This document shows, one piece after another, positions 1-51,409 of a stretch of 64,000 bases of DNA. The notes under the pieces were generated by a model. It ran no database searches. It was not told the origin of the DNA and saw nothing but the letters and a program-made list of their open reading frames with translations. The position numbers were made by a program, and so were the translations under genes. The stretch comes from Candidatus Culexmicrobium cathedralense. GTDB lineage: Archaea > Thermoproteota > Methanomethylicia > Culexarchaeales > Culexmicrobiaceae. Position 1 is the first letter of the stretch, and each line of letters opens with the position of its first letter. Location of the stretch: NCBI GenBank assembly GCA_025061115.1, contig JANZKC010000001.1, positions 128,001-192,000 of the forward strand, in the 5' to 3' direction.

Positions 1-846
1 TTGAAGGCATTCATATCGGTTGACTTGGAGGGTATGCCCTACATAGTGAGCCCCGAGCACTTAACGTTAAGGCGCGCGCTCTATGATGAAGCTAGGAAAA
101 TTGCAACTAAAATAACGAAGATTGCAGCCGAATCCTTAAAGGAGCGTGGCTTCGATGAAATAATAGTCGCCGACAGTCACGGCCCAATGGTTAATCTGCT
201 TGTTGAAGAACTTCCAGACTACGTTGAAATCGTAAGGGGTTATCCTAGGCCGCTCAGCATGGTTGCATGGATTCAAGAGTGTAATGCAGCCATATTTCTA
301 GGTTATCACGCCAAAGCAGGAACTGCAAAATCAACCTTCGACCACACATACAGTGGAACCACCATTGCAAAAGTTGAAATCAACGGCATTGAAGTAAGCG
401 AATTCCTATTAAACGCATATGTTGCAGGACATTATGATATTCCAGTAATATTGGTTGGAGGCGAAGCAAAGCTACTTGAGGACGACGTAGCTAAGCATGC
501 ACCCTGGGCTGAAAGAGTAGTCTTTAAGCGATCTGCAAGCAGATACGCGGCAATAAGCCCCAGCATGGCCAAAATAAAGAAGGCTTTAAGGGATGCAGTT
601 AGCAAAGCAGTATTGAAGTTTAATAAGGGAGAGGCTAAGCCGCTAAAAACTAATTATCCTGTTAATGTAGCTATAACATTTCTCAAGAGCAGCTTTGCAG
701 ATGCAGCTGAGCTGCTTCCAGGAGTAAAGCGCATTGGCGGATTAACGGCCAAGTACGAGGCTAATGACATACTCGAAGCATATAAGGTTTTTGAACTACT
801 AGTACTAGCTGCATCGGCAGTTAATGTGATGACTCAGCCAAAGTAG
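1..846 (+). CDS. dppA: M55 family D-aminopeptidase (DppA)
   Basis: N-terminal SVDLEG, DSHG, LGYHAKAG and FDHTYS motifs typical of M55/DppA. Confidence 0.92.
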   Translation: MKAFISVDLEGMPYIVSPEHLTLRRALYDEARKIATKITKIAAESLKERGFDEIIVADSHGPMVNLLVEELPDYVEIVRGYPRPLSMVAWIQECNAAIFLGYHAKAGTAKSTFDHTYSGTTIAKVEINGIEVSEFLLNAYVAGHYDIPVILVGGEAKLLEDDVAKHAPWAERVVFKRSASRYAAISPSMAKIKKALRDAVSKAVLKFNKGEAKPLKTNYPVNVAITFLKSSFADAAELLPGVKRIGGLTAKYEANDILEAYKVFELLVLAASAVNVMTQPK

Positions 847-31470: not shown

Positions 31471-31520
31471 CTGAAAATAGGCTTAAATTATCGCTATATT
31501 AAAATTTTGATATAGAGGTG

Positions 31521-32964: not shown

Positions 32965-33050
32965 ATGTTCAACTTAGACTTCAGCACTAGTCAATTTTCG
33001 TAAATCTTGTGGATTTTAAATAGCGTCTTATTTAGCGAGATTTAGGGCTT

Positions 33051-33217: not shown

Positions 33218-33614
33218 ACTTGCAAGGTTTTCTTAAGAAAAGAGTTGATAAACTTACCTCCTTATTTACTTTAAAGGCGTTGTTACATTTATAGGTGAAG
33301 TATATAATATTAAATTTGAAACATTAAACTATTACTACCACTAACAGTAGCACCACTAATCATAATTGGAGTCAAAAAAGCATTAAAAAATAGAAAACAC
33401 AAAAATAAGCTTCATATAAAAGTTAAGAAGAAAAATATGGAAAGAAAGGTTGGGGATAAGAGGAAAATTGAGAAAAAGAAATCCAAGAAACCAAATAGAC
33501 TAGCAGAAGCATTACTAATGACTGAAACTTGAGTTCGTTATTATTATATGTTTATTTGATTTTGTCTCATTTAGTGGTTTTGGTTGTTATTGGCATGTTT
33601 TGTGAAGTGTTAAT

Positions 33615-34223: not shown

Positions 34224-34256
34224 TATTATAACAGTGGGAAAATAAAAATTTTAAAG

Positions 34257-35585: not shown

Positions 35586-35696
35586 ATTTGACCTCCTAAT
35601 ATAGAAATTATAAAATCAATCATATAAATGTAACGTTACTTATCAAGTTAGCTAACTCTAAACTATATATTACCCAGGTTATCATAAAATGCTTAG

Positions 35697-36681: not shown

Positions 36682-36848
36682 TCAGGCTGAGCGAAAGAAA
36701 AGGCATATTATTTGAAGAGCTGATCAAAAATAGGCTGAGCAAAGTGTTCGGTGATGAACTCGTGCAGATACCCGCTAAAAACGGGTTCATGTAAACGGCT
36801 TTCTCCGGGCTTTTCTCACCATAAATTATATGGTTAAAAATGTTTTTT

Positions 36849-36863
36849 GGCTCAGTGTGAGAC
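36849..36863. repeat. 15-bp direct repeat copy 2 (GGCTCAGTGTGAGAC)
   Basis: Exact match at 32950-32964. Confidence 0.6.
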
Positions 36864-37356
36864 GAGGTCATCATTTCTCAGTCTGCGTCTCTACATCACA
36901 GCCACTATAACTACTGTCGGGGTTAAAGTTAGTTTTTTCGTTCAAATCATATGGAGCGACAAACTAAATCTACATAAAATGTTGAATTATTCAAATGTGT
37001 GATGGGAGAGTTAAGACATGATTGACAGTTCAACCCATTTGAGTTTAGAATTGTGACACGGTTTAACTAAGCTCTACTTTTCCGATCCATCTACTCATGC
37101 ATACTTCATTTATGATTTAATTTACGAACTTGACAAGACTAATGTAAGGTATGCAGCAAGTCTTTAACTCCAATATCCCACTTTATTCTCCAAATTTAAG
37201 TCAAATATACAATTCTGTATTGTTACCAATAGTTGGGTATTTTATATGCCGGTTGTTGCGACTGAAAAAGCACAATTAATAATGCAGCTAATGACAATCT
37301 TTTTATATTTAAAGCATAACAAAATACATATGTGTGAAAATATAAAATTTTATTGA

Positions 37357-38469
37357 ATGTTAGAATATTGCAAATTTAATCAAAAAATAACACATAATGG
37401 TAATCTAATAATAATATTATATTCAATATTAGTAATAACTAACTATGTTAACAACCATGTATTTGTTGGAAAAGATATATGGTTCGAAGCTGAGCATTGG
37501 ATTGGTGAGCAAATAGTACTTACAGTTCATCCTAATGGGAGCATAACTGTTATAATTTGCACATATTCAGACAAGCTTTTTATAGATTTATCTGATATAA
37601 ATGCTAAATTTGGTTTTTCTATAATTTGTTTGTATGAAAAAGAAATTTATTTAAACATTAGGTTTGACTTATCTTCTATTAGTTTGGAGGAGGCGGAATT
37701 GAAGTCTTATAATATTGTTAGCAGATTGCAGGATATTCTTGGAATGAATTTCGTATTGGCAAGTGAAGATAGGGTTGATTACGTTACTTCCGCAGGTATA
37801 AGAAGCTTTGTTACTTTTATTTATAAACCTACAGAATATAATTTTGAGAAAATTATAGATCTGTTCCTTCAAGTTAAACCTGATAGTGGTTTTTCACTAT
37901 TAATAAATAAGGATATCATTTCAAAGAATTCATATCTAAAAATAAATATATATTATGCTTACCAAACTAGAGAAATTAGAGTTAACTTAATTTTTAAAAA
38001 GATCTTTAACGCATATTTTAAATTTAAGGAAGGAGAAAAATATGTTCTAGATGTATTTAAATTATTTAATTTTACGGGCAACATAGTTTCACATCGATCT
38101 TTAGATACATTATTTTGGATATATTTCGATTATGCTTATGGTATCGATTTCAAGTTTTTGGATATCCGCATTCCATGTTACTATAGCGTGCATAGGAGTA
38201 GTGGTGCTAGGGAATATATTATCACGAATGAGCCTTGGTACATTCCTAGCGGTACAAATATAGATGGAATGGTTATTAAGTTTATGGTTATTGAGAAGGG
38301 GTTTAGACTTACGCCTTATTCAATTAGAATTTTAGGCTATGTTATTTTGCTGTTGTTGGTGTTTGTTGTTTGTTTTCTATTTTATCGTTTAAAGTTATTT
38401 GAGATGATATTTAAAAAATATATTGCTTCATTGTATAATGTTATTTGGAGGGGCTGTTGTGAAAGCTAG
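37357..38469 (+). CDS. Hypothetical secreted protein with C-terminal membrane anchor (paralogue of 41808-42878)
   Basis: Hydrophobic N-terminus, C-terminal TM, shared blocks KIIDLF.VKP and KFKEGEKYVLDVF. Confidence 0.7.
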   Translation: MLEYCKFNQKITHNGNLIIILYSILVITNYVNNHVFVGKDIWFEAEHWIGEQIVLTVHPNGSITVIICTYSDKLFIDLSDINAKFGFSIICLYEKEIYLNIRFDLSSISLEEAELKSYNIVSRLQDILGMNFVLASEDRVDYVTSAGIRSFVTFIYKPTEYNFEKIIDLFLQVKPDSGFSLLINKDIISKNSYLKINIYYAYQTREIRVNLIFKKIFNAYFKFKEGEKYVLDVFKLFNFTGNIVSHRSLDTLFWIYFDYAYGIDFKFLDIRIPCYYSVHRSSGAREYIITNEPWYIPSGTNIDGMVIKFMVIEKGFRLTPYSIRILGYVILLLLVFVVCFLFYRLKLFEMIFKKYIASLYNVIWRGCCES

Positions 38470-39978
38470 ATTTATAGTTTCTTCATTGATTATTGTGGTT
38501 TTATGCGTTCATCTTGCTGGTTTTGTTTATTGTAATCCTGGTATTGTTGATGTTAATTTGTGGTGTTCTTCTCCTAGTAGGGTTGGTTTTGCAGGTGAAT
38601 CTTTTACGTATATTTTTGATGTGAGTTATGTTGGGGTTTATTCATTTATAGATTTGAGCCTTTATGTTGAGGGGGTGCCATCTAGTTGGTCTTATAAGTT
38701 TATTTATAATGGATTTGAAGTTGACATGATTCGCTTACTTAATGAGACGCGTGTAAATTTGCAGCTTATTGTTGATGTTCCTTCTTCGGCTTCACCTGGT
38801 GAATATAGCTTTAAAATTGTAGTTGAGTACGTTCATTATCCGTATAGGAGTTATTTGAATTGTAGGGCTATTGTTAAGCCTACTGTTAGGGATTTGGATG
38901 TTTTTTGCATGTTTCCAGCTAAGGCTGTTTGGGCTGGTTCCAGCGTGGAGTTTGAATTGAATTTGCACTATTTTGGTCCTGAGGATACGTTTAACTTCAC
39001 AGTTATGAATTTACCTTCGGGCTGGAGCGTTTACTTCATTCATGGCTCCGATGAAATTCTTCTTTTATCATTGAATGATGGAGATACTGCTTCAATTAAG
39101 GCTGTTTTTGAAATTCCTGCTGATGCTGAAATTGGAGATTACAACTTAACTTTAATCATATTTTCCAAATTTATTAGTAGAAAGGTGAATTTGATTGTCA
39201 GAGTTAAGCCTCCATCCACCTTCAACAGGGGTTTGAGGCTTTCCGTGGACTATCCCATCATTGACATTGAGGCAGGTAGATTTGCATATTTCACTTTAAC
39301 CGTAAATAACGTTGGAGCTGTTGATGAAATTGTTTACTTAAGCGTTTCTGAAAAACCCTCTGGATGGGAAGTTTCGTTCATAGTATCTGGCAAGAAGATT
39401 CACGGCCTATCAGTTCCTGCGAGAAGCTTCTCCAATGTCATTGTTGAGGCGAAGCCTCCGCCATATGTTGAATTGGGTGAGCATAAGTTCATCATTACAG
39501 CCGAATCTGAGGATGGAGCTATATCGGCTAACATCACCCTAATTGTCAATATTTATGGCAAATATAGCTTGAGCCTACATTTCCCAGAATTCCCATCACC
39601 CTACTTCAGCATGAAATCCGGCGAAACTAAACGATTTGAAGTTGAAGTTAAAAATAATGGTGTTTTAAACGTCACAAACATTTACCTTACACTTGAAGTT
39701 CCATCAATCGATTGGGAAGTGAACATTGAACCCAAAAAATCATGCTTCTACAACCAGGCGAATCCGTGACCTTCCAAGTAGAAATGTACGTATCAACCAT
39801 AATTTCAGCAGGGGACTACTTCATCACAGTTAAAGCAGTTTCAGATCAAGCTTCAGCATCAAAAGATCTAAGAATTTCAATTACTAAGCCAACTGAGTGG
39901 GGCTACATTGGAGCAGCACTAGCTGTAATAGCAATTGTAATCGTAGTAATTATCTTCAAGAGGACTGGAAGGCGATGA
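38423..39978 (+). pseudogene. NEW3/COG1470-like Ig-repeat membrane-anchored protein, frameshifted at A6 run 39734-39739
   Basis: Repeated P.GW...VP..A..GEY Ig units; adding one A joins 38423-39769 to 39742-39978 (EPKKIMLLQPGES...TM anchor). Confidence 0.7.
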
Positions 39979-40919
39979 ATGGTAAAGCGATAATTGAAAC
40001 CAAAAATTTAACGAAAATATATCACGTTGATGGACGGGAGATTCGAGCTGTCGACAATCTAAATCTAACTGTCTATGAAGGCGAATTATTCGGTTATCTA
40101 GGTCCAAACGGCTCAGGCAAAACTACCACAATCCTAATGCTTCTAGGACTAATTCAACCCACAAGCGGCGAAGGAAAAGTCGCAGGATACGATATAATTA
40201 GGGAATCCAAAATGATTAGAAGAGTTGCTGGATACATTCCTGAAAGATATAGCTTCTACGAAGACTTGTCAGCATACGAGAACCTAGAATACTTTGCTAA
40301 GCTAAATAACATTCCTAAAAATGAAGTTGAAGAGAGAATAAAATGGGCTCTAGAAATAGTTGAGTTAAGCAAGTGGATTAATGCACCAGTAAAAACTTTT
40401 TCAAGAGGCATGAAGCAGAGGTTAGCTCTAGCCAACGTGCTAATAAGAAAGCCTAAAATAATATTTCTAGATGAGCCCACAGCAGGATTAGATCCACATG
40501 CAACAGCGAAGTTCAGATCCTTAATAAAGAAGCTTAACAATGAATTTAACATCACAATATTCCTATCAAGCCACATGCTCCACGAAGTAAGGCAAATATG
40601 CAATAAAATCGGATTCCTAAAAGATGGAAGGCTAATAGCCATAGACACCATCGACGGCTTCATGAACAAGATGGGAATTAAAGTCATATTGGAAGCAACA
40701 AACATCAACCATAAAATCATCAAGTCAATAGAGAACTTAAATGACGTAAATAAAGTATTGAAAGTAAATGATAAACTAGTCATTTATGCTAGAAACGACG
40801 TTAGATTAGATATTTCAAAAATAGTTACAGGCTTAGGAGAATACATTTTAACTCTAAAAATAGAGCCTCCAACTCTTGAAGAAGTTTTCTTCATAGTCTA
40901 TGGAGAGAAAGGAGGATGA
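39975..40919 (+). CDS. ABC exporter ATP-binding subunit
   Basis: GPNGSGKTT, FSRGMKQR, FLDEPT, SSH; likely ATG at 39975. Confidence 0.92.
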   Translation: MNGKAIIETKNLTKIYHVDGREIRAVDNLNLTVYEGELFGYLGPNGSGKTTTILMLLGLIQPTSGEGKVAGYDIIRESKMIRRVAGYIPERYSFYEDLSAYENLEYFAKLNNIPKNEVEERIKWALEIVELSKWINAPVKTFSRGMKQRLALANVLIRKPKIIFLDEPTAGLDPHATAKFRSLIKKLNNEFNITIFLSSHMLHEVRQICNKIGFLKDGRLIAIDTIDGFMNKMGIKVILEATNINHKIIKSIENLNDVNKVLKVNDKLVIYARNDVRLDISKIVTGLGEYILTLKIEPPTLEEVFFIVYGEKGG

Positions 40920-41803
40920 GCATGAGCACCATCATAATTGCATTAAAAGAATTCTCAGACCATGTAACAAGCCGAAGATTCCTAATTCTATTCACGCTCC
41001 TAAGCGTACTTTCAGTTCTATCAGCCTTCTCATCAATAAGCAGAGCATTTATAGGCGAAGTTAAAATGTTTTCAGACATATTAACTCTAGGCCGCCTATC
41101 AATAATATACCTAATAGGAGAACTAGGACCTCTAATCGGAATAGCCTTGGGATTCGATTCGATCAGCAAGGAAATTGAAAGCGGTTCAATGCTACTATTA
41201 CTATCCTGCCCAATATATCGGGACACAATATTAAATGGAAAAATTCTAGGAGGACTACTAACAATAATTCTAGCTCTAGGCACATCCACAATTCTACTAA
41301 CCGGATTCACCCTAGCTCAAATAGGAATTGCCCCAACAAGTGAAGAAATAATAAGATTAATCCTCTACTTCCTAGCATCAATAATTTACATTTTAAGCTA
41401 CATGGCTCTAAGCATGCTAACATCAATAATCTCAAAAAGAACTTCAATATCACTGCTAACTTCAATTTCAATATGGATCTTCTTCACATTCATAATGCCC
41501 ATGGTCGCAAGCTCACTAGCAACAATCCTACCAGAAGAGGATATAGAAGGAAAAATAAGAATAATGACCATAACGCTGCTACTAACGCCAGTTCAACACT
41601 ACTACACGCTTAGCAGAAACATCATAAGCCCAAAATTCTCAATAGATCCATTTAGCATATTCCCAAGAAGATCAATAGTAAAGCCATTAACCCTAATTGA
41701 AAGTTTAAACCTAACGTGGCCAAACCTAGCAATAATAACATCACTACTAGTAATATTCGTAGCAGCATCCTACATCAAATTCCTAAAAGAAGAAATAAGA
41801 TAA
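40916..41803 (+). CDS. ABC-2 (NosY-like) permease
   Basis: IIALKEF, ALGFDSISKEIESG...PIYR.TILNGK motif. Confidence 0.88.
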   Translation: MSMSTIIIALKEFSDHVTSRRFLILFTLLSVLSVLSAFSSISRAFIGEVKMFSDILTLGRLSIIYLIGELGPLIGIALGFDSISKEIESGSMLLLLSCPIYRDTILNGKILGGLLTIILALGTSTILLTGFTLAQIGIAPTSEEIIRLILYFLASIIYILSYMALSMLTSIISKRTSISLLTSISIWIFFTFIMPMVASSLATILPEEDIEGKIRIMTITLLLTPVQHYYTLSRNIISPKFSIDPFSIFPRRSIVKPLTLIESLNLTWPNLAIITSLLVIFVAASYIKFLKEEIR

Positions 41804-41807
41804 CAAG

Positions 41808-42878
41808 CTACTTCAACTTAAATCCACGTTTTCTAGCATAAATAATCATCAAGGCCACAACAATTAAAACAACAACTATTGAAACATAACCCAAAATCTG
41901 CGTTAAAGGTAAACTAGGAATCTTAAATCCCTTTTCAACAACTTTAAATTTGATCCGTATACCATCAATCAACTTGCCTGGAATGTTATAATACGGCTTA
42001 TCTATAATAGCATCATTGGTAATCGCATAAGAAACAATCACCCCCTCCATTCTTCCTCTTCCAATAACATAATCAATAGATGAGAAGTAAATGTCTTCAA
42101 AAACGTAGTCAAGATTACCTGGCCTTTGAAATTCAATATAAATAACTGATTTAAAAGACTTTTTACTAGCAGTGAAAGGTTCAGTTATATTCAAAATTTC
42201 AAACAAATCAAAAACATAAGTTTTACCAGCTTTAAAACTATAATAATTATCAAATTTTTTCTTAATTTCAATTTTGTAACTCCAATAACCTAAAGATTTA
42301 TCATAAGTCATTATAAATGACAATAAAGTTCCATTAGTCATAAAGCATTTACTCTTTATGAAAGAAAGAAAACCATCTTCAGGCCTTACTTCAAAAAATA
42401 AATCTATAATTTTATTGACATCAATATCAAACACTTTGTATATTAAATATAATATCCTAACTTTAGTTCCAGTCCATGGATTTGTCACATCAACAGGCTT
42501 CTTCTCGGCCAATTCACAATATGCCCCAAAATATGTACTCACTATTTTTTGAGCAGTTATCTGTCCAATCTCCTCAGCCTCTTCAAAGCTAAAGTCCATG
42601 CAATTATAGCGTAAGCACAAATTTGTATGAACTCCAATTAAAGTAGAGATTGAAAAAGACTCCAACTTATCAATATGCGGTATGTTTAATATGTTTAAGT
42701 TAAATATATCTAAAAATGGCTTTTCAAGTTTAGATTCAAGAAATATTATGATGGAACCATCTTTGTTTATTATTACTCTTATTTCTTCATGAGGCTCCAA
42801 AATTACCTGAGAACTCAAGAAATTATGTAGCATCAAGAGGATTAAGATAGGCATTATCCTACTTTTCATCAAAATCAC
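41808..42878 (-). CDS. Hypothetical secreted protein with C-terminal membrane anchor (paralogue of 37357-38469)
   Basis: Signal peptide, C-terminal TM plus basic tail, shared blocks KIIDLFFEVRP, FKAGKTYVFDLF, IDGIRIKFKVVEKGFK. Confidence 0.75.
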   Translation of the reverse strand: MILMKSRIMPILILLMLHNFLSSQVILEPHEEIRVIINKDGSIIIFLESKLEKPFLDIFNLNILNIPHIDKLESFSISTLIGVHTNLCLRYNCMDFSFEEAEEIGQITAQKIVSTYFGAYCELAEKKPVDVTNPWTGTKVRILYLIYKVFDIDVNKIIDLFFEVRPEDGFLSFIKSKCFMTNGTLLSFIMTYDKSLGYWSYKIEIKKKFDNYYSFKAGKTYVFDLFEILNITEPFTASKKSFKSVIYIEFQRPGNLDYVFEDIYFSSIDYVIGRGRMEGVIVSYAITNDAIIDKPYYNIPGKLIDGIRIKFKVVEKGFKIPSLPLTQILGYVSIVVVLIVVALMIIYARKRGFKLK

Positions 42879-42936
42879 ATAAATAATTTAAGAAAAATAT
42901 ATATAAGTTTTTTCAAAGAAAGAGTGGTGCTTTAAC

Positions 42937-43359
42937 GTGAAGACATCTATAATTACCTTTGTATTGCTAGGCATTCTGTCCATCATCCCTCAAGCACTTG
43001 CAATAAACATAATACAGCCGTGCTGATATGTTGATATCCATGGATTTTTAAATTATGTAGAAGATTTTGACCAGTACTTTCACTGGGGATCATGTTATGA
43101 TGTAGTGACATTTTATGTCATTGATCCGCCGCCTAATGAGGGAGTCTACTTAAAAATTGAAGGTTTAGACATTGATGGTAAAGTTGTAGATGCGGAGTGC
43201 ATAGCGCCAAGTTCATTTGTCTGGCAAGTAGAATTGGTACCGGAAAACGGTACTTCAATATGGTATGTCAAAATAACATATTTATGGTGGTCCGGAGATT
43301 CTCCAGCTCCGGTTGTTGAATATTATGGTGACATATATTATACTGGCGGTCCAGTATAA
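42937..43359 (+). pseudogene. Small secreted protein (140 codons) with one in-frame TGA
   Basis: GGTG RBS plus GTG at 42937, signal peptide MKTSIITFVLLGILSIIPQALA, TGA at 43024, then in frame with ORF 43105-43359. Confidence 0.6.
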
Positions 43360-43367
43360 ATTCAATT

Positions 43368-44273
43368 TTATATTATTAAATTTGTTTCCCATTTTAATTG
43401 TTTGTGATAAGTTTTGTGTGGTTTGAACTCAGCTTTTAATTTTTCGGGGTTTTCTCCTTTCCATGGTATTTTGGTTGGATTTATTTCGCCATATCCCCAT
43501 TTGTGTAGGTAGTGGAGGTAGCCTATGTCTTGTGGGTTGAAGCCCATCATGTAGGCGGTTAGCGAGTCGAGGTGCAGTGGATTTGTTGATGCTAGGAATG
43601 CTCCCCACTTTATGGGTTCGCCGTGCACTGGGCCGTTTCCTTGCATTCCTTCTAGGCCGTCGATGACTCCTAGGTCTGGCATTACTTTTGCTGCTACTTT
43701 TGCTATGTTTAGGTTGATGTAGTGGTATCCTTGATGCATTAATGGTTTTTCTCTGCGTGGAATTACTCCCATGGACATGTTTTTGATTGTTAAGGTGACT
43801 ATTACTGTGTCGTGAGTTTTTGGTCTGCAGATTGATATTTTGAAGAGATTCTCGTTTAGGGCTATTTTTGCTAGTCTTATGTTGAATTTTTCTCCTTTGC
43901 TGTTAAAGACTTCTATTGTTTCAAATTCATCTTCGTCGAGATATATGAATTCTATTGGGTATTTTTCTTTAAGCTTTATGTAATCGTAATTTTTTAATGC
44001 GTCCCAAAGCGTTCCGTCCGCCGGCGACTCGGCCATAATTACTTCACTTGGACTGAAGTTTTCGTATAGGTAGCTTAGTAGTACATCTACAGCTTCTACT
44101 GGTGTTGCTGAAAGCATAACTTTAACTGACACGAAGTTTGGCTTGACCAGTATTTTCTTTCGATTGCGCATCTTAACTTCTATTTCATTTCTTATTAATT
44201 CAAGAGCGTTCCAAATTCCTTCTTGCCTTGAATCTGCCTTCACTATTGAAACTGAGCCCTTCATCGTATTCAC
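43368..44273 (-). CDS. DUF362 domain protein
   Basis: ILVKPNFV, PKTHD...TLTIKN, IDGLEGMQGNGP. Confidence 0.85.
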   Translation of the reverse strand: MNTMKGSVSIVKADSRQEGIWNALELIRNEIEVKMRNRKKILVKPNFVSVKVMLSATPVEAVDVLLSYLYENFSPSEVIMAESPADGTLWDALKNYDYIKLKEKYPIEFIYLDEDEFETIEVFNSKGEKFNIRLAKIALNENLFKISICRPKTHDTVIVTLTIKNMSMGVIPRREKPLMHQGYHYINLNIAKVAAKVMPDLGVIDGLEGMQGNGPVHGEPIKWGAFLASTNPLHLDSLTAYMMGFNPQDIGYLHYLHKWGYGEINPTKIPWKGENPEKLKAEFKPHKTYHKQLKWETNLII

Positions 44274-44400
44274 TCATTATTTTCATAGGCATCTACTGCT
44301 TTTGAATCTTTACTAATATTCTTAAGTATCATGCCTATGAACGCTAATTAAATGCAGGGTTATGACATAAATGCGAAAATTGTATGTTAAGCTTTAAAAT

Positions 44401-44960
44401 TTAATTTTTTACCAACAGTATGAAGATGAGCTCTTTTATATTCTCAATGCACTTTATTTTCAAATTTCTCTTCTTTAATTCAAATATTATTATTGTTAGT
44501 AAGCTCAGCATGAAGATTACTTGCATTATCATTGAAGCCAATATCCAGTCGCCAAGTAGAATTAAAGCGTCGATGCTTTCACTTGTTATTGGCCAGAAAA
44601 GTGGATTGTAGGGGTGATGCAGCGAATCTGTTATTAAGTGAATTTCGGATGACAGCTGCACTGAGAAGGCATAGTTGACTGTGCTGTGTTCATGTTTGAA
44701 CTTTTTACTCAATATTTTTCGATAAACATTCTGTAAAGTGGAAGTAGGATTAAGCCGATGATCCATGATAAAGCTAGCGAACCGATTAGGCTATGTAAAA
44801 CTAATCTGTTGAATGGTGGATATAAGCCAATTAGGAAGAGTATTGGAGTTTCTATATCCGGAATAGCGGATCCAATTACTAACCCTGGCAGACTTAATTT
44901 TCTTCTACTAATTTTATGAATAGCATATGCATGAACGTAGTGGAGGGGAGTTAAAACCAT
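44401..44960 (-). pseudogene. DUF4184-like membrane metal-dependent hydrolase split by a frameshift
   Basis: TPLH...GLVIGSAIPD...HSLIG then HLITDSLHHPYNPLFWP in the next frame; one extra A in the A5 run (44715-44719) restores EKILSKK. Confidence 0.7.
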
Positions 44961-44995
44961 AATGTAGCATCTCTTAACAACTTATTTCATTAATG

Positions 44996-46972
44996 CTAAG
45001 TTTTGTCGATTAGTTTTTGAACTTTCACTAGAGTTGAATTGAATATTGGGCCTCCGCCTATTACTTGCGTTTCACATGGTACGAGAGTGTTTTGAGCTTC
45101 TTGATTTAACCCTATTAGCTGTCTTGGAGCCCACATGGCGCCTCTGGAAACTTTCTCTGTCACTATTGCCCTAACCTCTACTACACCAAGTTCATTATAA
45201 AGCTCGACGATGTCTCCATCTTTAATGTTTAGATTTTTAGCGTCATCAATGTTTATCCATACAATTTGTGGGATATCTCCATATACTTCTCGGAATTGAG
45301 TGTGGGTGTATTTTGAAGTTGAGCTGTTTAATAGGATCATGTATCCCTCCTTCATCTTAAGCTGATGCTGTTTCGGCAGTGGATTTAAACCCAGTTTTTC
45401 AGCTTTCTTCGAGGAAAACTCTATTTTGCCTGTTATGGTTTGATATCTGCTTTTTTGCTTTACTTTAAGTTTTAATGTTGCGCCATTAATTAAGTCTTCA
45501 AATGAGCCATTTTCTATAGCATCTTTAAGTGCTATGCGAAGTGCATGCAATGGATCTTCATAGATCCACTCATCCTTCAATCCAAGCCTAACGGCTAATT
45601 CCCTCATAATCCAAATCTCATCTTTGCTTTCACCCAAAGGCTCCACCGCTTTATTTGAAATTCTAATGTATCTGTGACTGTATGGAATGACTACATCGAC
45701 TTTTTCTAGGTAGGTTGGAGCTGGCAATACAATATCAGCATATTTTGCTGTTTCAGTCCAGTGGGTATCGTGAACTACCACAAAAACATCACTTCTATTT
45801 AATCCTCTTCTAACTGCATTTTGATCTGGCAGGGTAACTGCTGGATTCATATTATAAATATATATGAATTTGAATTCTCCTCTTTCAAGTAGCTTGCCAA
45901 GCGCTACTTGACTTACTATTGATGGCTTCCTTGCTGTTAGGCTTTCGCCTGTCAAGTATGAAATATCGATACTCCATCCTTTACTATTGGTGTAGTAGAA
46001 GCCTCTATTCAATCCTAACAGTGCAGGGATGAGTACAATTGCTCTAACTGACTCGGCGCCGTACTTGCTCTTTTGTAGTCCTATTCCTATCATGGTTGCG
46101 CTTGGCTTTAAATTACCGTAGAATTCCCCTAGCTCTTCAATTAAACTCCACTTGATGCCAGTTACTTCTTCCACTTTTTCAGGCGTCCACTTCATTGCTT
46201 CCTCTTTAAATTTCTCATACCCATAGGTCCACTTCTCAATGAAATCTAAGTCTACGTAATTATGGTCTATAAGATATCTTGCAACTCCATATGCTAATGC
46301 GACATCGCTTCCAGGTTTAGGTTGAAGCCACTTGTCTGCCTTTTCTGCGGATTCACTCCTTCTAGGATCAATTACTACTAGTTGAGCTCCGCGCTTTTTA
46401 GCTTCGAGAGATAAGGCCCACAAGTGAGGAGCACTAACTGCAGCATTAAATCCCCAAAATACTATAAGTTTCATTTCAGGAAGTTCGTCAGGCTGAATTC
46501 CATAGGTTAATCCGTAGTGCATGGAGATAGCTTCATGACCAGATTTACTGCAAATACTGTAATCTGTTCTAGTTGCTCCAATTGCGTACCACAACCTCTG
46601 CGAGAAATATTGAGTGAGCAAGCCCATGTTTCCACTGTACTCTAGGTGCAGAATTGCTTGAGGACCATAATTCTCCAAAACCTCTTTAAGCCTACTAGCG
46701 ATCATGTCTAAAGCTTCAGTCCATGAAACTTTCACGAATACTCCACTATTCTTACAACCTATCCTAATATGTGGGTAGAGGATTCTATTGCTGCTGTAAA
46801 CTCTTTCAGGATCTTTTGCAGCTCTAGGGCAGGTGAAGCCTCTAGTAATTGGGTGACCTACTTCACCTTCAACGCGAATTAACTTGCCATTTTCAACCAA
46901 AGCTACTAGGAAACATGTGTCATAGCAATCTCTAGCACAAACGGTTTTAATTCGCTTCATAGCAAACTCCAC
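44996..46972 (-). CDS. Molybdopterin (bis-MGD) oxidoreductase catalytic subunit
   Basis: CxxDCxDxC...TCP Fe-S motif, IDPRRS, PGSDVALA, TETAKYADIVLPA, C-terminal molydop-binding domain. Confidence 0.9.
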   Translation of the reverse strand: MEFAMKRIKTVCARDCYDTCFLVALVENGKLIRVEGEVGHPITRGFTCPRAAKDPERVYSSNRILYPHIRIGCKNSGVFVKVSWTEALDMIASRLKEVLENYGPQAILHLEYSGNMGLLTQYFSQRLWYAIGATRTDYSICSKSGHEAISMHYGLTYGIQPDELPEMKLIVFWGFNAAVSAPHLWALSLEAKKRGAQLVVIDPRRSESAEKADKWLQPKPGSDVALAYGVARYLIDHNYVDLDFIEKWTYGYEKFKEEAMKWTPEKVEEVTGIKWSLIEELGEFYGNLKPSATMIGIGLQKSKYGAESVRAIVLIPALLGLNRGFYYTNSKGWSIDISYLTGESLTARKPSIVSQVALGKLLERGEFKFIYIYNMNPAVTLPDQNAVRRGLNRSDVFVVVHDTHWTETAKYADIVLPAPTYLEKVDVVIPYSHRYIRISNKAVEPLGESKDEIWIMRELAVRLGLKDEWIYEDPLHALRIALKDAIENGSFEDLINGATLKLKVKQKSRYQTITGKIEFSSKKAEKLGLNPLPKQHQLKMKEGYMILLNSSTSKYTHTQFREVYGDIPQIVWINIDDAKNLNIKDGDIVELYNELGVVEVRAIVTEKVSRGAMWAPRQLIGLNQEAQNTLVPCETQVIGGGPIFNSTLVKVQKLIDKT

Positions 46973-47116
46973 GCCGATGGAAATTACAAACTACATTGCA
47001 CAATTACACAATTATCCCTTTTACTTTCTTATCTAGCAAAGCTAAATTAAAGCTCCTCAGCTACAACTTCAATTACTCACCATCTTTATATTTCTCACTT
47101 CACTTTGAAATGATGG

Positions 47117-48493
47117 ATGGTGCTTGAAATGTCCTTTAGAGATGAGGGTAAAGAGCTCAGCATGATTTTAGAGAGAGGTAAATGCGCTTGGGGTAGATGC
47201 TACTTCTGCGGTTGGGGTAAAAAGGAAGTTAAAGTTAGCATTAATAAATTGAAACGGAGATTAGAGGGGTTCTTAAAGAAGCACTCTAAGGCTGGGAAAA
47301 TTGGGAAGCTAAAGATTTTCTCGTCTGGAAGCTTTCTAGATGAAAAGCAGTTTCCAAGTGAATTCGTCAAGTTTGTTGTTGAAGCCGCTGAAAAATATGG
47401 TGTTGAGGAGCTTGTGGTTGAGTCTAGGCCGGAGTTCATAACTGATAATAGACTTAAGCTCTTAAAGAGCAGTAAAGTTAAGGTTACTGTTGCTATGGGC
47501 TTAGAAATTGCTGATAACGACATTCTAACGAATTTCTATAGAAAGGGTTTTAGAGTTGAAGATTACTTGAATGCTGTTGAAACATTGCGTAGAAATGGGT
47601 TTGGAGTTAGAGCTTATGTTCTAGTTAATGGTCACCCAATTTTATATGAGAATCCTGATTTGCAGAGGAAACTCCTTGACAAAACTATGGAGTTGGCTTT
47701 GAAAATTGCCGATACAATTGTTATAATTAATGCTTACCCCCATGTTAAGGCTGATTTATGGAATGACTGGATTGAGGGCAGGTGGAAACCACTTGACGAG
47801 AAACAGTTTTACGATTTAGTAGGAAAATGGCGTGACAACCCTAAAGTTGAGCTTGACTTCAACAATTACTACTTCATTCCAAAATTTCCTAGAGAAAAGA
47901 AGGTGTTATTGAAGGGAGTTGGACATGACTTTTTAGTTCACCCATACTATGAGGTTTGGCAGGACTACTTCGTCCGCTTCTACAAGCCTCCTAAAGGCAA
48001 AGATTACGTCTTATTCCTTCCATGCGCATATAGGAAGCCCTATACGAGGTCTAGGACTTGGAAAGCAATTTTAGGAGCTATTTCAGGCTATCCATTCTTT
48101 AAGAAGCTACATTTAATTGCAGTTAGCAGCCCAGGCGTAATACCGTATGAATTTATAAATTACTATCCATTCAACGCCTATGACTGGCCTGAATGGCTTG
48201 AAACTCAGGAAATTAAGAGAGAGTACATTGAAGTCACGAAGGAGAGAGTAAAGAATTATGTGAAAGCTCATGAAAAATGCTACAAACTCTACTTCGCATA
48301 CTTCAAGCCTGACGCAGAAACAATGAGGGCAATTAAACTCGCATTTGAAGAGATGAAGTTAATTGAAAAGCTCGTAGTTATAATTGATGAAGAGACGTAC
48401 GCTAAAATTGTTGAAGAGAAGTTTAAGCCCCCAGTTGCACATCCACTTGCACTGGAAAAGCTTAGAAAAATATTGAGGCAGTTTTTAGCTTAA
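47117..48493 (+). CDS. Fusion: RaSEA-like radical SAM domain + ArcS-type (DUF5591) domain, putative archaeosine biosynthesis protein
   Basis: CxxxxCxxC, KIFSSGSFLD, VESRPEFI, AMGLE; C-terminal LPCAYRKPYTRS...SSPGVIPYE...YDWP. Confidence 0.8.
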   Translation: MVLEMSFRDEGKELSMILERGKCAWGRCYFCGWGKKEVKVSINKLKRRLEGFLKKHSKAGKIGKLKIFSSGSFLDEKQFPSEFVKFVVEAAEKYGVEELVVESRPEFITDNRLKLLKSSKVKVTVAMGLEIADNDILTNFYRKGFRVEDYLNAVETLRRNGFGVRAYVLVNGHPILYENPDLQRKLLDKTMELALKIADTIVIINAYPHVKADLWNDWIEGRWKPLDEKQFYDLVGKWRDNPKVELDFNNYYFIPKFPREKKVLLKGVGHDFLVHPYYEVWQDYFVRFYKPPKGKDYVLFLPCAYRKPYTRSRTWKAILGAISGYPFFKKLHLIAVSSPGVIPYEFINYYPFNAYDWPEWLETQEIKREYIEVTKERVKNYVKAHEKCYKLYFAYFKPDAETMRAIKLAFEEMKLIEKLVVIIDEETYAKIVEEKFKPPVAHPLALEKLRKILRQFLA

Positions 48494-48504: not shown

Positions 48505-49248
48505 TTACTTTAATTTAAATACTCGTAAAGCATTTTCGCCCAGTACTAACTCTAATTCACGCCTGCTAAGGCCGGAAACTCTCACCTTCTCTAATTCAAA
48601 TGCTGGATGGCCGAAAGGCATGTCAGAGCCATAAAGTATTCTTTCAGGTCCTAACACTTCAGCTGCCTCCTTAATTTTACTGTGCATTGGCATTCCAGAG
48701 GTCTCGAGCATTATGTTTTCATGCTTCTTCGCAATTTCAATTGCACCATTAATGTAAACTATGTGTCCATGCCCCATGTGACCAAGGATTATGGTTACAT
48801 CCGGAAACCTATCTGCTAATGGCGAGAAATGCCATGGAAGCGACCACGGCGGATGACCGCAGTGGAATAGTACTGGAATGCCATGTTTTCGAGCCCTTTC
48901 CATTATTGGATCAACTATTTCTTGATCAGGCAAGTAGGAGTCTAATAGTGGATGCAGCTTAATTCCCTTGAAATTCCACTCAATTACTGCTTTATCAATT
49001 AACTTTATCGCCTCATCACCGCGATGAGGATTAACCCAAACTAAGCCCGCCAACCTCTCTGGATACTTCTGTACAGCCTTTAAAGTTAATTCATTTGGAA
49101 GTGAAAAGACAATCGACTTTTCAATGTTATATTCATCCATCAATTTTATCATGGAATCGGCATCTAATCTGACATTGAAAAGAGGAAAATCGCCTAAATG
49201 GGTATGCGAATCCACGATCACAGACATGCGAATCACCTCAAACAACAT
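48505..49248 (-). CDS. Amidohydrolase_2 family metal-dependent hydrolase
   Basis: DSHTH, KGIKLHP, LFHCG, ILGHMG, YGSDMP. Confidence 0.88.
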   Translation of the reverse strand: MLFEVIRMSVIVDSHTHLGDFPLFNVRLDADSMIKLMDEYNIEKSIVFSLPNELTLKAVQKYPERLAGLVWVNPHRGDEAIKLIDKAVIEWNFKGIKLHPLLDSYLPDQEIVDPIMERARKHGIPVLFHCGHPPWSLPWHFSPLADRFPDVTIILGHMGHGHIVYINGAIEIAKKHENIMLETSGMPMHSKIKEAAEVLGPERILYGSDMPFGHPAFELEKVRVSGLSRRELELVLGENALRVFKLK

Positions 49249-49756
49249 ACTCTACTCTCATCGCCTTTCGAATAGCAGCCATTAATGGAATTGTAACTAT
49301 TATGTCAACAGCGCTAAGCGGGAAGAATGTTATTAGGTCTAGGTAAGCTACTGGACCTAAAAGCCAATAATCATATAGGAAGTATGCAGTGTTTTTCCAT
49401 ATGTGGCTAATGATCATTGCCAACAGCTCTGATGTCCTGGGCTTATTGCTAATAATTCTCCTCATTTTACCTAAAATAAATCCCATAATTCCACGTATAA
49501 CTATAGTTGCTGGAGCCCACTGAATAAAAGCACTCTGATACATTGGATTCCAAACGTCGAATAAAGCTGCTCCAACACCACATGCAAAAGCACCAATCTT
49601 CGGTCCAAACATTATTGCAGCGATAAAGGAAGCCACATCACCCAAATGCCAAACACCCAAAGGTTTCGGCATTGGAACAGCAATACAAGTCATAACGTAC
49701 ACTAGTGCAGTCATAGCAGCAGTATAAGCAATAACCTTCGCTCCACTTGTACTCAT
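49238..49756 (-). CDS. ECF transporter S-component
   Basis: AAMTALVYV...P.P.G..HLGD...FGP..GA...GVGAALFD, WAPAT.VIRG. Confidence 0.85.
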   Translation of the reverse strand: MSTSGAKVIAYTAAMTALVYVMTCIAVPMPKPLGVWHLGDVASFIAAIMFGPKIGAFACGVGAALFDVWNPMYQSAFIQWAPATIVIRGIMGFILGKMRRIISNKPRTSELLAMIISHIWKNTAYFLYDYWLLGPVAYLDLITFFPLSAVDIIVTIPLMAAIRKAMRVEYVV

Positions 49757-49939: not shown

Positions 49940-51409
49940 ATGAAAAATATATCTTTAATAATGATGTCGTATTTAAGTCTAATAAAGTGCACAAGATGTC
50001 AAGCCGAATATGATGCAAACACCATTCTAAGCCGTTGCAATAAGTGCAACGGACCCCTGGAAGTCATTTACAATTATGATGAACTACGCAACTGGATATC
50101 CAGAGGAGAATTCGAGAAGAGAGTTGATGGAATTTGGAAGTATGTCGAATTACTTCCATGCCCTTCAAGCTCTGCAATTACCCTAGGCGAAGGCAATACG
50201 CTGCTAATCAAGTGCGAAAAGCTTGGCAGAAAGCTTGGATTAAGAAAGCTTTACATAAAGGATGAAACCAAGAATCCAACTGGCTCATTTATGGATCGCG
50301 GATCATCAGTTTTAATTACAAAGCTTTGCGAAGCGAAATTTAGCGGAGTTTACGGAGTTTTTAAGGGGAATCTAGGAGCATCCCTAGCTGCATACTCAGC
50401 TAAAGCCGGTATAAAATGCACAGTTTTCATTTCGGATAGAATTGATGCAAGCAAGATATATCAAATGATAGCATTCGGAGCCACCATATACCCAAGGAAC
50501 AAGATGAGTGAAGTTAAGTTCGGCGATAAACATTACTTTGCCGATAATGCAGATCCATTTCTACTGGAAGGTGAAAAAACTATAGGATTTGAAATTATTG
50601 AAAACTTAGACTGGCATCTCCCCGACTTCATTATAGCTCCAATGGGAACTGGCGGATTAATATCAGCCATTTGGAAGGCAATTAGAGAATTTGAGTATCT
50701 CGATCTGATGAGCGAATCTAAATCCAAATTGATTGGAGTTCAATCTGAAAAGTGCTCCCCCATTGTAGATGAATTCTTGTTAGGAGAAGCCAGGGAAGTT
50801 GATGCTGGAAGTACAATTGCCGTTGACATTGCATTTGAAAAGCCAAGTAGAGATTTAGAGGCTATAAGAGCTCTTAAGGAAAGCAGCGGCCATGCATTCA
50901 AAGTTTCAGATGAAGAAATGCTGCTTGCCTCAATGATGCTAGCTAAAATGGAGGGAGTTTTCGCTGAGCCGGCTGCAGCATCTACAATAGCTTGCGTAAA
51001 AAGGATGATAGACGAAGGAATTTTAGATTCATCAGACACGGTAATATGCATCATAACTGGCTCAGGATTAAAAGACCCAGTAGCAGCAGTAAAAGAACTT
51101 GAGAAGAACCTTACTTTAGAAAAATTCATCAAATTAAAGGTTAGAATGAAGCCGAGACTTGGAATTGGAAGCACTAAGATAAAAATTTTAAAAATATTAA
51201 CTAGCGAAAAACTCCATGGATATGAAATTTGGAAGAAGCTTCACGAAATTGGATTGGAAATTTCAATTCCAGCAGTATATCAACACCTTAAAGAACTGGA
51301 GCAAATGGGACTAATATCAAGGGGCAAAAGCGAAGTTGTTGAAGGTAGAATAAGGACATACTACGCAATAACAAGTAGAGGTATAGAGCTTCTTAAAGCA
51401 TTAACATAA
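49940..51409 (+). CDS. Threonine-synthase-fold protein lacking the PLP lysine, fused to a C-terminal PadR-like winged HTH
   Basis: CxxC zinc knuckles, LGEGNT, NPTGSF-M-DRG, EGKTxxxE-like, PMGTGG, EPAAA, ITGSGLKD; C-terminal LHGYEIWK...AVYQHLKELE..GLI...RTYYAIT. Confidence 0.85.
   Translation: MKNISLIMMSYLSLIKCTRCQAEYDANTILSRCNKCNGPLEVIYNYDELRNWISRGEFEKRVDGIWKYVELLPCPSSSAITLGEGNTLLIKCEKLGRKLGLRKLYIKDETKNPTGSFMDRGSSVLITKLCEAKFSGVYGVFKGNLGASLAAYSAKAGIKCTVFISDRIDASKIYQMIAFGATIYPRNKMSEVKFGDKHYFADNADPFLLEGEKTIGFEIIENLDWHLPDFIIAPMGTGGLISAIWKAIREFEYLDLMSESKSKLIGVQSEKCSPIVDEFLLGEAREVDAGSTIAVDIAFEKPSRDLEAIRALKESSGHAFKVSDEEMLLASMMLAKMEGVFAEPAAASTIACVKRMIDEGILDSSDTVICIITGSGLKDPVAAVKELEKNLTLEKFIKLKVRMKPRLGIGSTKIKILKILTSEKLHGYEIWKKLHEIGLEISIPAVYQHLKELEQMGLISRGKSEVVEGRIRTYYAITSRGIELLKALT

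Follow-up and report, generated by a model that had tools for sequence, protein, structure and literature searches.

A radical-SAM–DUF5591 fusion protein of Candidatus Culexmicrobium cathedralense belongs to a widespread archaeal family and is a candidate single-chain archaeosine synthase

The window that we analyzed, a 64,000-nucleotide stretch of DNA from the archaeon Candidatus Culexmicrobium cathedralense, encodes a protein in which a radical-SAM domain is followed by a DUF5591 domain. The translation of 47117..48493 (+) contains no internal stop codons, and every motif quoted in a first-pass annotation of this DNA (the cysteine motif, KIFSSGSFLD, VESRPEFI, AMGLE, SSPGVIPYE, YDWP, and others) is present in it. 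This motif content is judged to be far beyond chance. The features of the locus are as follows:

47086..47092, + strand: TATA-like TTTATAT, ~25–40 nt upstream of the candidate starts (sequence read directly; resemblance to the consensus only)
47117..48493, + strand: radical-SAM/DUF5591 fusion gene, 458 aa, stop codon included (ORF list and translation)
47129, + strand: alternative start M5, versus M1 at 47117
47144..47881, + strand: radical-SAM domain, RaSEA-like, residues ~10–255 (TIGR01210, Pfam Radical_SAM, structure match, BLASTP)
47183..47209, + strand: [4Fe-4S] cluster motif C23-x4-C28-x2-C31 (CAWGRCYFC; translation, invariant Cys in alignment A1)
47882..47923, + strand: short interdomain linker, residues ~256–269, between the radical-SAM structural matches (to 252–260) and the canonical ArcS alignment (from 271)
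47924..48490, + strand: DUF5591/ArcS C1-type core, residues ~270–458 (Pfam, NF040592, phmmer and Foldseek to 2q07/AF0587)
48020..48061, + strand: ArcS signature P302-C-x3-KPY-x2-S-x2-W315 (PCAYRKPYTRSRTW; translation, alignment to AF0587)

The TTTATAT sequence lies in the 144-bp gap between the fusion gene and a divergent molybdopterin oxidoreductase gene. Scanning the window against Rfam and for tRNA genes returned no match. The database copy of the protein (P0002) has 454 aa. In an AlphaFold2 model, the 458-aa chain is compact and has two domains (mean pLDDT 94.4, pTM 0.89); residues 1–8 have pLDDT below 50, and the linker has pLDDT of at least 87. A two-copy prediction (homodimer, alignment A1) gave a score of 0.00 (mark 0.42), which counts neither for nor against a dimer.

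By sequence, RaSEA is the radical-SAM family nearest to the N-terminal half. In an NCBIfam search, the RaSEA profile TIGR01210 came out on top with 111.2 bits, the next radical-SAM family (MnmL/YtqA) scoring 30.6, while Pfam Radical_SAM matched residues 26–172 with 38.9 bits (cut-off 29.5). BLASTP aligned residues 12–241 to the canonical RaSEA P0172, with 30% identity (E 6e-25, 91.7 bits). The TIGR01210 match covers profile positions 13–178 of 313 and lies below the curated cut-off of 212.15, with canonical RaSEA representatives scoring 212–358 bits over positions ~2–308. The cluster motif is near the N terminus and has x4 spacing, where canonical representatives have x4, x7, or x9; it is followed by KIFSSGSFLD (residues 66–75), VESRPEFI (101–108), and AMGLE (126–130). 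In a FastTree phylogeny of the radical-SAM domain, fusion-type sequences form their own clade (97), adjacent to the canonical RaSEA clade (98) and not nested within it. We know of no RaSEA structure for comparison. When the N-domain model (range 10..252) was compared to solved structures using VIA-align, the nearest was queuine lyase (6p78; Z 18.5, rmsd 3.0, 211 residues), which also aligns to this half by sequence with 29.9 bits (PDB sequences). Viperin ties with it (Z 18.3), so Z is non-discriminating for this domain. Queuine lyase, a radical-SAM enzyme of queuosine salvage that also acts on 7-deazaguanine, shares with the fusion the Cx4Cx2C spacing and the SGSF motif, but it is bacterial and has no DUF5591 domain.

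The C-terminal half resembles the catalytic core of ArcS. Pfam DUF5591 (PF17884) matches residues 281–387 with 54.2 bits, over its gathering threshold of 26, and the ArcS profile NF040592 aligns through ArcS positions 279–415 with 48.1 bits (below its cut-off of 440); a canonical ArcS (P0256) aligns from residue 271 onward. The best solved relative of this half is AF0587 from Archaeoglobus fulgidus (PDB 2q07, a structural-genomics entry deposited as "uncharacterized protein"), which matches the motif column for column (PCAYRKPYTRSRTW versus PCTARKPYLTSRTH), with a phmmer E of 2.5e-6 and a Foldseek E of 1.2e-6 over 172 columns. The motif of the ArcS C1 domain is worded PC-x3-KPY-x2-S-x2-H in PMC5699537 and PMC10516641. 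In the fusion, where residues 301–315 read LPCAYRKPYTRSRTW, all fixed positions are matched but the last, at which W315 replaces His. SSPGVIPYE (residues 337–345) and YDWP (355–358) lie further downstream. Pfam detects no TGT, TGT_C2, or PUA domain in the fusion, which does not have the four-domain Nt(TGT-like)-C1-C2-PUA layout of ArcS. The first-pass annotation had attributed the first set of motifs to RaSEA and the second to ArcS, and had seen in them the cores of two steps within one 458-aa chain devoid of TGT-like and PUA domains. Both attributions are borne out by the HMM searches, in which each half matches its named family and no unrelated families, and the chain is indeed a single intact ORF. 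Partnership with an ArcS core here takes the form of covalent joining of the RaSEA-like domain to the DUF5591/ArcS-motif domain.

PF17884 and PF04055 are found together well beyond this genome. We identified an unnamed family of radical-SAM-then-DUF5591 fusions, comprising 408 clusters in at least 158 species genomes, which spans Methanomethylicia, other Thermoproteota, Asgard, and DPANN archaea. The best 120 matches are 405–488 aa long and align end to end, over 88–100% of the query. Precomputed annotation assigns PF17884 to all 120 and PF04055 also to 111, and public annotation of family members goes no further than "DUF5591 domain-containing" or "radical SAM protein." Of 121 family sequences, 120 carry Cx4Cx2C and the exception is N-terminally truncated; the strict ArcS motif occurs in 118, the other three differing at the first Pro alone. 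C23, C28, and C31 as well as C303, K307, P308, Y309, and S312 are invariant (alignment A1) and are among the 55 columns at least 97% conserved in 120 members. On this sequence evidence, the fusion architecture is widespread, neither rare nor specific to this genome.

The substitution at the last motif position, which had also been pointed out in the first-pass annotation, is real and is shared by many relatives: position 315 is His in 91, Trp in 28, and Tyr in 1 of the 120 members. All 5 fusion carriers in our phylum sample are of the Trp type, and the three residues interchange at least four times on the family tree. Apart from position 315, the sole column covarying between the W and H groups is A335 versus V, other conserved residues being identical, and we found no compensating residue and no new His in the W group across these 120 members. 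The same position varies in other DUF5591 proteins (H, I, V, G, F, and Y), and dG+ is still made by a phage ArcS whose motif is degenerate (PMC10516641). The His-to-Trp change is a recurrent, conserved lineage variant and no defect peculiar to this gene.

Genome context links the family to arcTGT. Unbiased clustering of the ORFs within 6 kb of the fusion at 80 loci returned arcTGT as the commonest neighbor (21 loci), and tblastn at the 80 loci placed it at ≤10 kb in 22, ≤2 kb in 13, and <300 bp in 7. Adjacent arcTGT genes come in two arrangements, either on the same strand 11–23 bp downstream or divergent at 52–62 bp. For co-occurrence, we examined 50 fusion genomes out of the 80. arcTGT was detected in 46 of these (45 over the cut-off), the remaining 4 being MAGs, while canonical RaSEA, ArcS at E ≤ 1e-65, and the QueF family were found in none of the 50 and a Gat-QueC–like ORF in only 2. 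The QueF model picks up QueF-like genes in 25 of 251 sampled genomes of the phylum, including none of the 5 fusion carriers. QueC is present in 9 of the 50 fusion genomes and was not found in 41; G118 and G177, closed one-contig genomes from one genus, each have both the fusion and QueC.

The genome of Ca. Culexmicrobium cathedralense itself encodes an arcTGT with 536 bits to TIGR00432 (cut-off 350), as the pathway put forward in the first-pass annotation entails. It is on a different contig from the fusion, and there is therefore no local linkage in this genome. A separate C2-PUA protein and QueT are also encoded, and nucleotide 15 is G in 33 of the 35 predicted tRNAs. Searches of this genome found no QueC, QueD, QueF-like, canonical ArcS, or canonical RaSEA; QueC matches are weak PP-loop hits only (≤27.6 bits), hence no Gat-QueC, and no other complete archaeosine route was found among these enzymes. 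There is a second DUF5591 paralogue, of 229 aa, next to QueT, which we considered as the real G+ synthase; nothing ties it to arcTGT, and it is the less likely candidate. Its own family, distinct and small (70 clusters), has the motif PCSFYKPYxPPxDE, without the Ser and His; the paralogue scores 24.4 against Pfam DUF5591 (threshold 26) and is found near the fusion in 0 of 80 loci. A DpdA fused to DUF6884 (269.9 bits to NF041059, cut-off 200) is encoded ~21 kb from this paralogue, on another contig than the fusion. The presence of this paralogue, QueT, and DpdA, a DNA transglycosylase, indicates that other 7-deazaguanine chemistry takes place in this organism.

We propose that the fusion is probably a single-chain archaeosine synthase, whose substrate would be preQ0 that has been scavenged and inserted into tRNA. 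In this scheme, arcTGT encoded elsewhere in the genome would replace G15 of tRNA by preQ0, which must be scavenged because the organism has QueT but neither QueC nor QueD. The ArcS-type core, with Cys303 and its KPY-S motif, would then join lysine or a related amine, through its amino group, to the preQ0-15 nitrile, giving an amidine adduct, from which the RaSEA-like domain, using SAM and a [4Fe-4S] cluster on C23/C28/C31, would remove the carbon skeleton to leave the formamidine of archaeosine (G+). Homology to the ArcS-RaSEA complex of Thermococcus kodakarensis is our ground for the inferred reactions and amine donor; tRNA would be the substrate, and the intermediate may pass from one active site to the other. 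The domain architecture, motif conservation, family-wide arcTGT linkage, and absence of other known G+ synthases are direct observations. A core without PUA is plausible because T. kodakarensis ArcS accepts preQ0 nucleoside as a minimal substrate, as reported in PMC11298593.

In weighing this reading, we counted in its favor homology, conservation, the model, the arcTGT neighborhood, co-occurrence, the organism's own genome, independent joins of the same two activities, and the literature. These joins are a DUF5591-C2-PUA-radical-SAM protein (P0182), a DUF5591-then-radical-SAM protein (P0147), and overlapping two-gene pairs in 3 further genomes. Counted against it were the scores of both halves, below equivalog cut-offs, with the alignment to the RaSEA profile confined to its first half; the Trp at the motif His and the lack of an RNA-binding domain in Pfam; the location of arcTGT on another contig and the presence of the DUF5591 paralogue, QueT, and DpdA in the genome; the Gat-QueC–like ORF in 2 of 50 and undetected arcTGT in 4 of 50 fusion genomes; the N-domain's best structural match being queuine lyase, though tied with viperin; and the separation of the fusion-type radical-SAM clade from canonical RaSEA.

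We also considered that the fusion might serve in salvage, with a free 7-deazaguanine base or nucleoside as its substrate in place of tRNA, which we regard as rather unlikely. Such an enzyme would use a queuine-lyase–like radical-SAM domain to convert scavenged archaeosine or preQ0 nucleosides to a base that arcTGT can insert, or would make the G+ base before insertion. This would fit with the lack of a tRNA-binding domain (Pfam), the top structural match to queuine lyase, and the acceptance of nucleoside substrates by T. kodakarensis ArcS (PMC11298593). It would also fit with QueC missing from 41 of 50 fusion genomes and from this one, in which precursors must therefore be scavenged. However, similarity to RaSEA is far stronger (111 bits by profile and 91.7 by BLASTP, versus 29.9 for queuine lyase), and the tie with viperin deprives the structural match of discriminating power. 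Moreover, QueC in 9 of 50 fusion genomes and in the closed G118 and G177 indicates that the fusion is retained by de novo producers as well, and if it were a salvage enzyme these genomes would have no enzyme for the preQ0-to-G+ step.

A different chemistry on the same two-step scaffold, where a Trp-type core would use another amine donor or give a non-G+ 7-deazaguanine product and the radical-SAM domain might act on some other adduct, seems quite improbable to us. The Trp-type motif, the sub-threshold equivalog scores of both halves, and the separate clade of the fused radical-SAM domain are in keeping with it, and for the ArcS of M. jannaschii the reported donors are NH4+, Asn, or Gln, not Lys, so donors already vary (PMC11298593). 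Against this, the H and W groups share all other conserved residues except A335/V, the residue has switched repeatedly on the tree, the position is variable across DUF5591 proteins, and the degenerate phage motif still supports dG+ formation (PMC10516641). Conversion of DpdA-inserted dPreQ0 to dG+ in DNA, as by viral ArcS2, is highly improbable, even though this genome encodes DpdA and viral ArcS2 is also a bare DUF5591 core (PMC10516641). A DpdA-like gene is within 10 kb of the fusion in 0 of 80 loci, compared to 22 of 80 for arcTGT, a search of 5 further carrier genomes, 4 having the fusion and 1 the split pair, found DpdA in none, and the DpdA of this genome lies ~21 kb from the other DUF5591 paralogue, on another contig than the fusion.

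How does the putative single-chain synthase compare with known systems? In Euryarchaeota, ArcS and RaSEA are separate proteins in a complex, as had been stated in the first-pass annotation and is confirmed by PMC11298593, and free ArcS is inactive without RaSEA. The T. kodakarensis complex (alpha, lysine transferase; beta, radical-SAM lyase; NF040592 and TIGR01210) has the same two catalytic modules as the fusion, the same type of cluster motif, and the ArcS PC-x3-KPY-x2-S signature; it is an obligate partnership acting after arcTGT in the pathway. The fusion differs in being one chain, not two, in having no TGT-like N-domain, C2, or PUA, in a RaSEA part whose alignment is confined to the first ~180 positions of the 313-position profile, in scoring below cut-off in both halves, in ending its motif with Trp instead of His, and in its separate radical-SAM clade. 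AF0587, a stand-alone protein of 306 aa with the motif His and no radical-SAM domain, would be the C-terminal part of a split ArcS. The viral or stand-alone ArcS2 proteins (such as those of Vibrio phage nt-1 and Sulfolobus virus STSV-2, acting with DpdA on DNA) are likewise reduced to the C1/DUF5591 core (PMC10516641) but have no radical-SAM partner domain and are linked to DpdA, whereas the fusion family is linked to arcTGT. In Crenarchaeota, QueF-like and Gat-QueC carry out the same pathway step in archaea without ArcS (PMC5485725). The former was never found together with the fusion in the genomes searched, and both have folds and mechanisms unrelated to those of the fusion. QueF-like is a T-fold thioimide enzyme that uses NH4+, Gat-QueC is a GATase-QueC fusion, and neither is homologous to it.

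Archaeosine at position 15 of tRNA is near-universal in archaea, and to our knowledge its last step has been assigned solely in lineages with ArcS and RaSEA, QueF-like, or Gat-QueC. If our proposal is true, the fused family would fill this gap in a large number of DPANN, Asgard, and TACK genomes; among the 50 carriers, the ArcS+RaSEA and QueF-like routes were not found and Gat-QueC is possible in 2 only. As a natural "Rosetta stone," the fusion also supports the partnership of ArcS and RaSEA, and it would offer a minimal 420–490-aa construct with which to study the structure and mechanism of two-step amidine synthesis, including the lysine site and the route of the adduct to the radical-SAM site. 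Both modules were already known separately, as ArcS and RaSEA. For their occurrence in a single chain, and for the family, we found no description in the literature open to our search; a DPANN paper (PMC8204110) mentions archaeosine in passing only.

More speculatively, the single-chain form might be the main, perhaps ancestral, archaeosine synthase outside Euryarchaeota (in DPANN, Asgard, Methanomethylicia, and parts of Thermoprotei), an extension of our proposal that we hold to be doubtful. The enzyme would receive preQ0-tRNA straight from arcTGT and so would need no tRNA-binding domain of its own, the euryarchaeal ArcS and RaSEA would be a later split that gained the TGT-like, C2, and PUA domains, and the Trp subgroup would be evidence that the final residue of the motif acts as an aromatic platform for the deazapurine, not as an acid/base catalyst.

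The gene of the fusion is a single open frame that stands alone, and the protein falls into two domains:

47117-48493, plus strand: fusion gene, 458 codons
47086-47092: TATA-like TTTATAT (sequence resemblance)
144 bp upstream of the fusion gene, divergent: molybdopterin oxidoreductase gene
11 bp downstream of the fusion gene, convergent: amidohydrolase gene
residues about 10-255: radical-SAM domain (sequence and structure alignments)
residues 26-172: Pfam Radical_SAM, 38.9 bits
residues about 256-269: linker
residues about 270-458: ArcS core
residues 281-387: Pfam DUF5591, 54.2 bits

All the motifs that the first-pass annotation had quoted are present, at residues 23-31, 66-75, 101-108, 126-130, 301-315, 337-345, and 355-358, and the translation confirms the Trp that it had read in place of the His of the ArcS motif. 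It had also described a protein without TGT-like or PUA domains, which is borne out by a Pfam search with no match to TGT, TGT_C2, or PUA. In the HMM search that it had proposed, DUF5591 is found by Pfam and RaSEA is the top radical-SAM family in NCBIfam: TIGR01210 is the best match, with 111.2 bits (runner-up radical-SAM family, 30.6). The score falls short of the curated 212.15, and the match is confined to profile positions 13-178 of 313. The ArcS model NF040592 matches in its C1 region (48.1 bits, profile positions 279-415). A canonical RaSEA representative (357.7 bits to TIGR01210) aligns with residues 12-241 at 30% identity (E 6e-25), and the alignment with a canonical ArcS-type protein (DUF5591 plus PUA, 621 aa) starts at residue 271, with 42% identity over 90 residues. 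When the PDB was searched by sequence, the N-half matched queuine lyase 6p78, and the C-half matched AF0587/2q07, with PCAYRKPYTRSRTW aligned with PCTARKPYLTSRTH.

An AlphaFold2 model based on 53 sequences of the family predicts one body with confidence (mean pLDDT 94.4, pTM 0.89). Foldseek searches with this model retrieved 2q07 with the C-domain (E 1.2e-6, 172 columns) and radical-SAM enzymes with the N-domain. In VIA-align, queuine lyase ranks top for model residues 10..252 (Z 18.5, rmsd 3.0, 211 residues), tied with viperin (Z 18.3). This ranking is uninformative on N-domain function because, to our knowledge, no structure of RaSEA exists for comparison.

How widespread is this architecture? 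A word-indexed search returned 408 clusters of relatives, and the best 120 of these are all 405-488 aa long with 88-100% query coverage, the precomputed domain column listing PF17884 in 120/120 and also PF04055 in 111/120. They come from Methanomethylicota, Culexarchaeum, Thermoproteota, Desulfurococcales, Asgard, Micr-, Aenigmat-, Nano-, and Altiarchaeota, and databases label them just "DUF5591 domain-containing protein," "radical SAM protein," or "hypothetical," apart from a single JGI "archaeosine synthase." An exhaustive representative search gave 879 matches, many covering one half only and full-length in about a dozen 50%-identity clusters. The family alignment has 55 columns conserved at 97% or more. 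Of 121 sequences, 120 contain Cx4Cx2C (the sole exception is N-terminally truncated) and 118 the strict ArcS motif, the remaining three deviating at the first Pro only. The three cluster ligands and C303 are the only conserved cysteines, which argues for one predicted [4Fe-4S] cluster and one catalytic Cys. Full-text literature searches found no description of a RaSEA-ArcS fusion; an earlier mention is possible. The family is real and conserved, a predicted variant of a known two-enzyme system.

The Trp at position 315 is shared by many members (H 91, W 28, Y 1; n = 120). It is fixed in the 21 closest relatives and occurs in all four other full-length carriers of the phylum sample; a FastTree tree implies at least four changes of state at this position. 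Comparing the W and H groups among the 120 members, we saw no substitute His, and A335/V is the only other column following the split. Outside the fusion, the 27 "C1-only" DUF5591 rows matching the search pattern have H 12, I 5, V 4, G 3, F 2, and Y 1 at this position, whereas C, KPY, and S are retained. PMC10516641 reports that dG+ is still formed by a phage ArcS whose motif is "slightly degenerated." We conclude that W315 is a tolerated lineage variant, not a sign of decay; the residue might act as an aromatic platform.

The two domains are also found joined otherwise or apart. P0182 is DUF5591-TGT_C2-PUA-Radical_SAM, P0147 has DUF5591 then Radical_SAM, and P0128 is a longer radical-SAM-then-DUF5591 form. 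Four genomes of the phylum sample have no fusion and encode a separate ~230-aa DUF5591 protein, with a His-type motif, and a ~240-250-aa Cx4Cx2C radical-SAM protein; in three of these four Thermoproteota genomes (loci L102-L104), the two genes share 4-40 nt, and both gene orders occur. A radical-SAM FastTree was computed from 126 rows, comprising 38 fusion N-domains (every fourth of P0001-P0121 plus 7 representatives), the 4 split forms, and 84 single-domain matches of 200-420 aa; rows that carried an ArcS motif or fell outside this size range were excluded. In the tree, the fusion type groups in one set (97*) together with 8 short "solo" rows that are possibly fragments. Canonical RaSEA is another clade (71 rows, 98*), and the split forms lie on a long separate branch. 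The fusion may have had a single origin. The tree is unrooted and quick, so no direction of change is drawn.

We then turned to the source genome (1.98 Mb, 25 contigs, 99.99% complete, 7.65% contamination), in which the following 7-deazaguanine genes lie outside the window:

contig C4, locus L002, 1369-2985, minus strand: arcTGT, 538 aa
contig C4, locus L003, 1135-2324, minus strand: QueT and a 229-aa DUF5591 paralogue
contig C4, locus L006, 199-2082, minus strand: DpdA-DUF6884 fusion, 627 aa
contig C2, locus L012, 1474-1974, plus strand: TGT_C2 + PUA protein, 166 aa

Of the genes that the first-pass annotation had proposed to look for, arcTGT is thus present (TIGR00432, 536 bits), and neither a canonical ArcS nor a canonical RaSEA was found. 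There is likewise no sign of a queF-like or gat-queC route, with no QueF, no true QueC (weak PP-loop matches only, 27.6 bits or less), and no PTPS/QueD in this genome. The arcTGT is "short," with a TGT domain and a C-terminal part that scores as DUF5591 without the PC...KPY motif. The gene for the separate C2-PUA module, which could serve arcTGT or the fusion, sits directly after an AAA-ATPase gene. QueT (168 aa; PF06177, 95 bits) is encoded by a gene overlapping by 7 nt that of the 229-aa paralogue, whose family (70 clusters, mostly ~220 aa) is marked by PCSFYKPYxPPxDE, a motif that lacks the Ser and His of ArcS, and which may be a salvage enzyme for imported 7-deazaguanine. Thirty-three of the 35 predicted tRNAs have G at nucleotide 15, and the other two presumably carry an extra 5' base. 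From this gene content, the organism appears to import a 7-deazaguanine precursor and insert it via arcTGT, with the fusion as the only evident candidate for the last step.

Among species genomes, 158 stretches encode a relative of the fusion, and the best 80 of these were taken as loci. Whole-genome searches of 50 of the 80 carriers, favouring longer contigs, revealed arcTGT in 46 (45 over cut-off), and RaSEA over cut-off, ArcS at E<=1e-65, and the QueF family in none. Each of the 50 has exactly one sub-threshold RaSEA-family match (82-138 bits, open frames of 381-645 aa), taken to be the fusion itself. True QueC (E<=1e-20) is found in only nine, being not found in 41. Two of the nine also carry a 431-438-aa ORF that ends in QueC and is compatible with Gat-QueC, one with a weak, below-threshold GATase_6 match (22 bits), so that complementarity with the known archaeosine routes, though strong, has exceptions. 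The QueF model was checked with a positive control: 25 of the 251 genomes sampled in the phylum have over-cut-off QueF-like ORFs of ~110-130 aa, and these 25 include none of the five fusion carriers. Five related genomes, of which four carry the fusion and one a split pair, all have arcTGT (three over cut-off), no QueF over cut-off, and no DpdA, and three have single-domain QueC. As a rule, carriers seem to scavenge the precursor.

When all 884 ORFs lying up to 6 kb from the fusion were clustered across the 80 loci, the largest neighbour cluster was arcTGT (representative with TGT, TGT_C1, TGT_C2, and PUA), in 21 loci, followed by housekeeping clusters (a Toprim protein in 15, M24 peptidase in 14, and M29 peptidase in 12). 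By tblastn with the source organism's arcTGT, a TGT gene lies within 10 kb in 22/80 loci, within 2 kb in 13, and at less than 300 bp in 7. Of the 38 loci flanked by at least 5 kb on each side, 14 have it. It is 11-23 bp downstream on the same strand in two Thermoproteota MAGs and head-to-head at 52-62 bp in DPANN. These loci are related to one another and not independent; by our estimate, finding arcTGT at 10 kb or less in over a quarter of them is far more than chance would give for 1-2 Mb genomes. No DpdA-like gene, QueT, or 229-aa paralogue was found in any of the 80.

As described in PMC11298593, Thermococcus kodakarensis ArcS transfers lysine to preQ0-15 and RaSEA turns the adduct into archaeosine, ArcS is active in complex only, and the tRNA body is non-essential, the D-arm accelerating the reaction. 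Such complex dependence and a dispensable tRNA body make a fused, PUA-less enzyme plausible as well as advantageous, which favours a single-chain archaeosine synthase, and we regard this as the probable function. That the protein is instead a salvage enzyme for the free base or nucleoside is unlikely, and that the same scaffold uses a different donor or yields a different product is, if anything, less likely again. DNA modification together with DpdA has in its favour that the source genome encodes DpdA (NF041059, 269.9 bits; cut-off 200), ~21 kb from the QueT-DUF5591 pair, which suggests 7-deazaguanine modification of DNA in this archaeon. The absence of DpdA from the fusion loci and the five related genomes speaks against it, and we consider such a role for the fusion highly improbable.

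Several other features of the window are worth recording. An ECF-type S-component gene (PF07155, 78.7 bits) overlaps the Amidohydro_2 gene by 11 nt, and this pair (48505-49756, minus strand) converges on the fusion gene; across the 80 loci it shows no link to 7-deazaguanines. At 49940-51409 (plus strand), a PLP-dependent enzyme (PALP, threonine-synthase-like) with a C-terminal PadR-type winged-helix DNA-binding domain may be an enzyme-regulator fusion. From ~26000 to 46000, G+C is 0.33-0.37 vs. 0.39-0.43 elsewhere, several ORFs are without Pfam match, and a 128-aa ORF (35697-36080, plus strand) matches the TdeIII restriction endonuclease profile in its first half alone (2-114 of 242); the stretch is a possible acquired island containing a truncated gene. 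Finally, PmbA/TldD-type metallopeptidase genes form two separate tandem pairs less than 25 kb apart, at 3140-5949 (minus strand) and 23765-26571 (plus strand).
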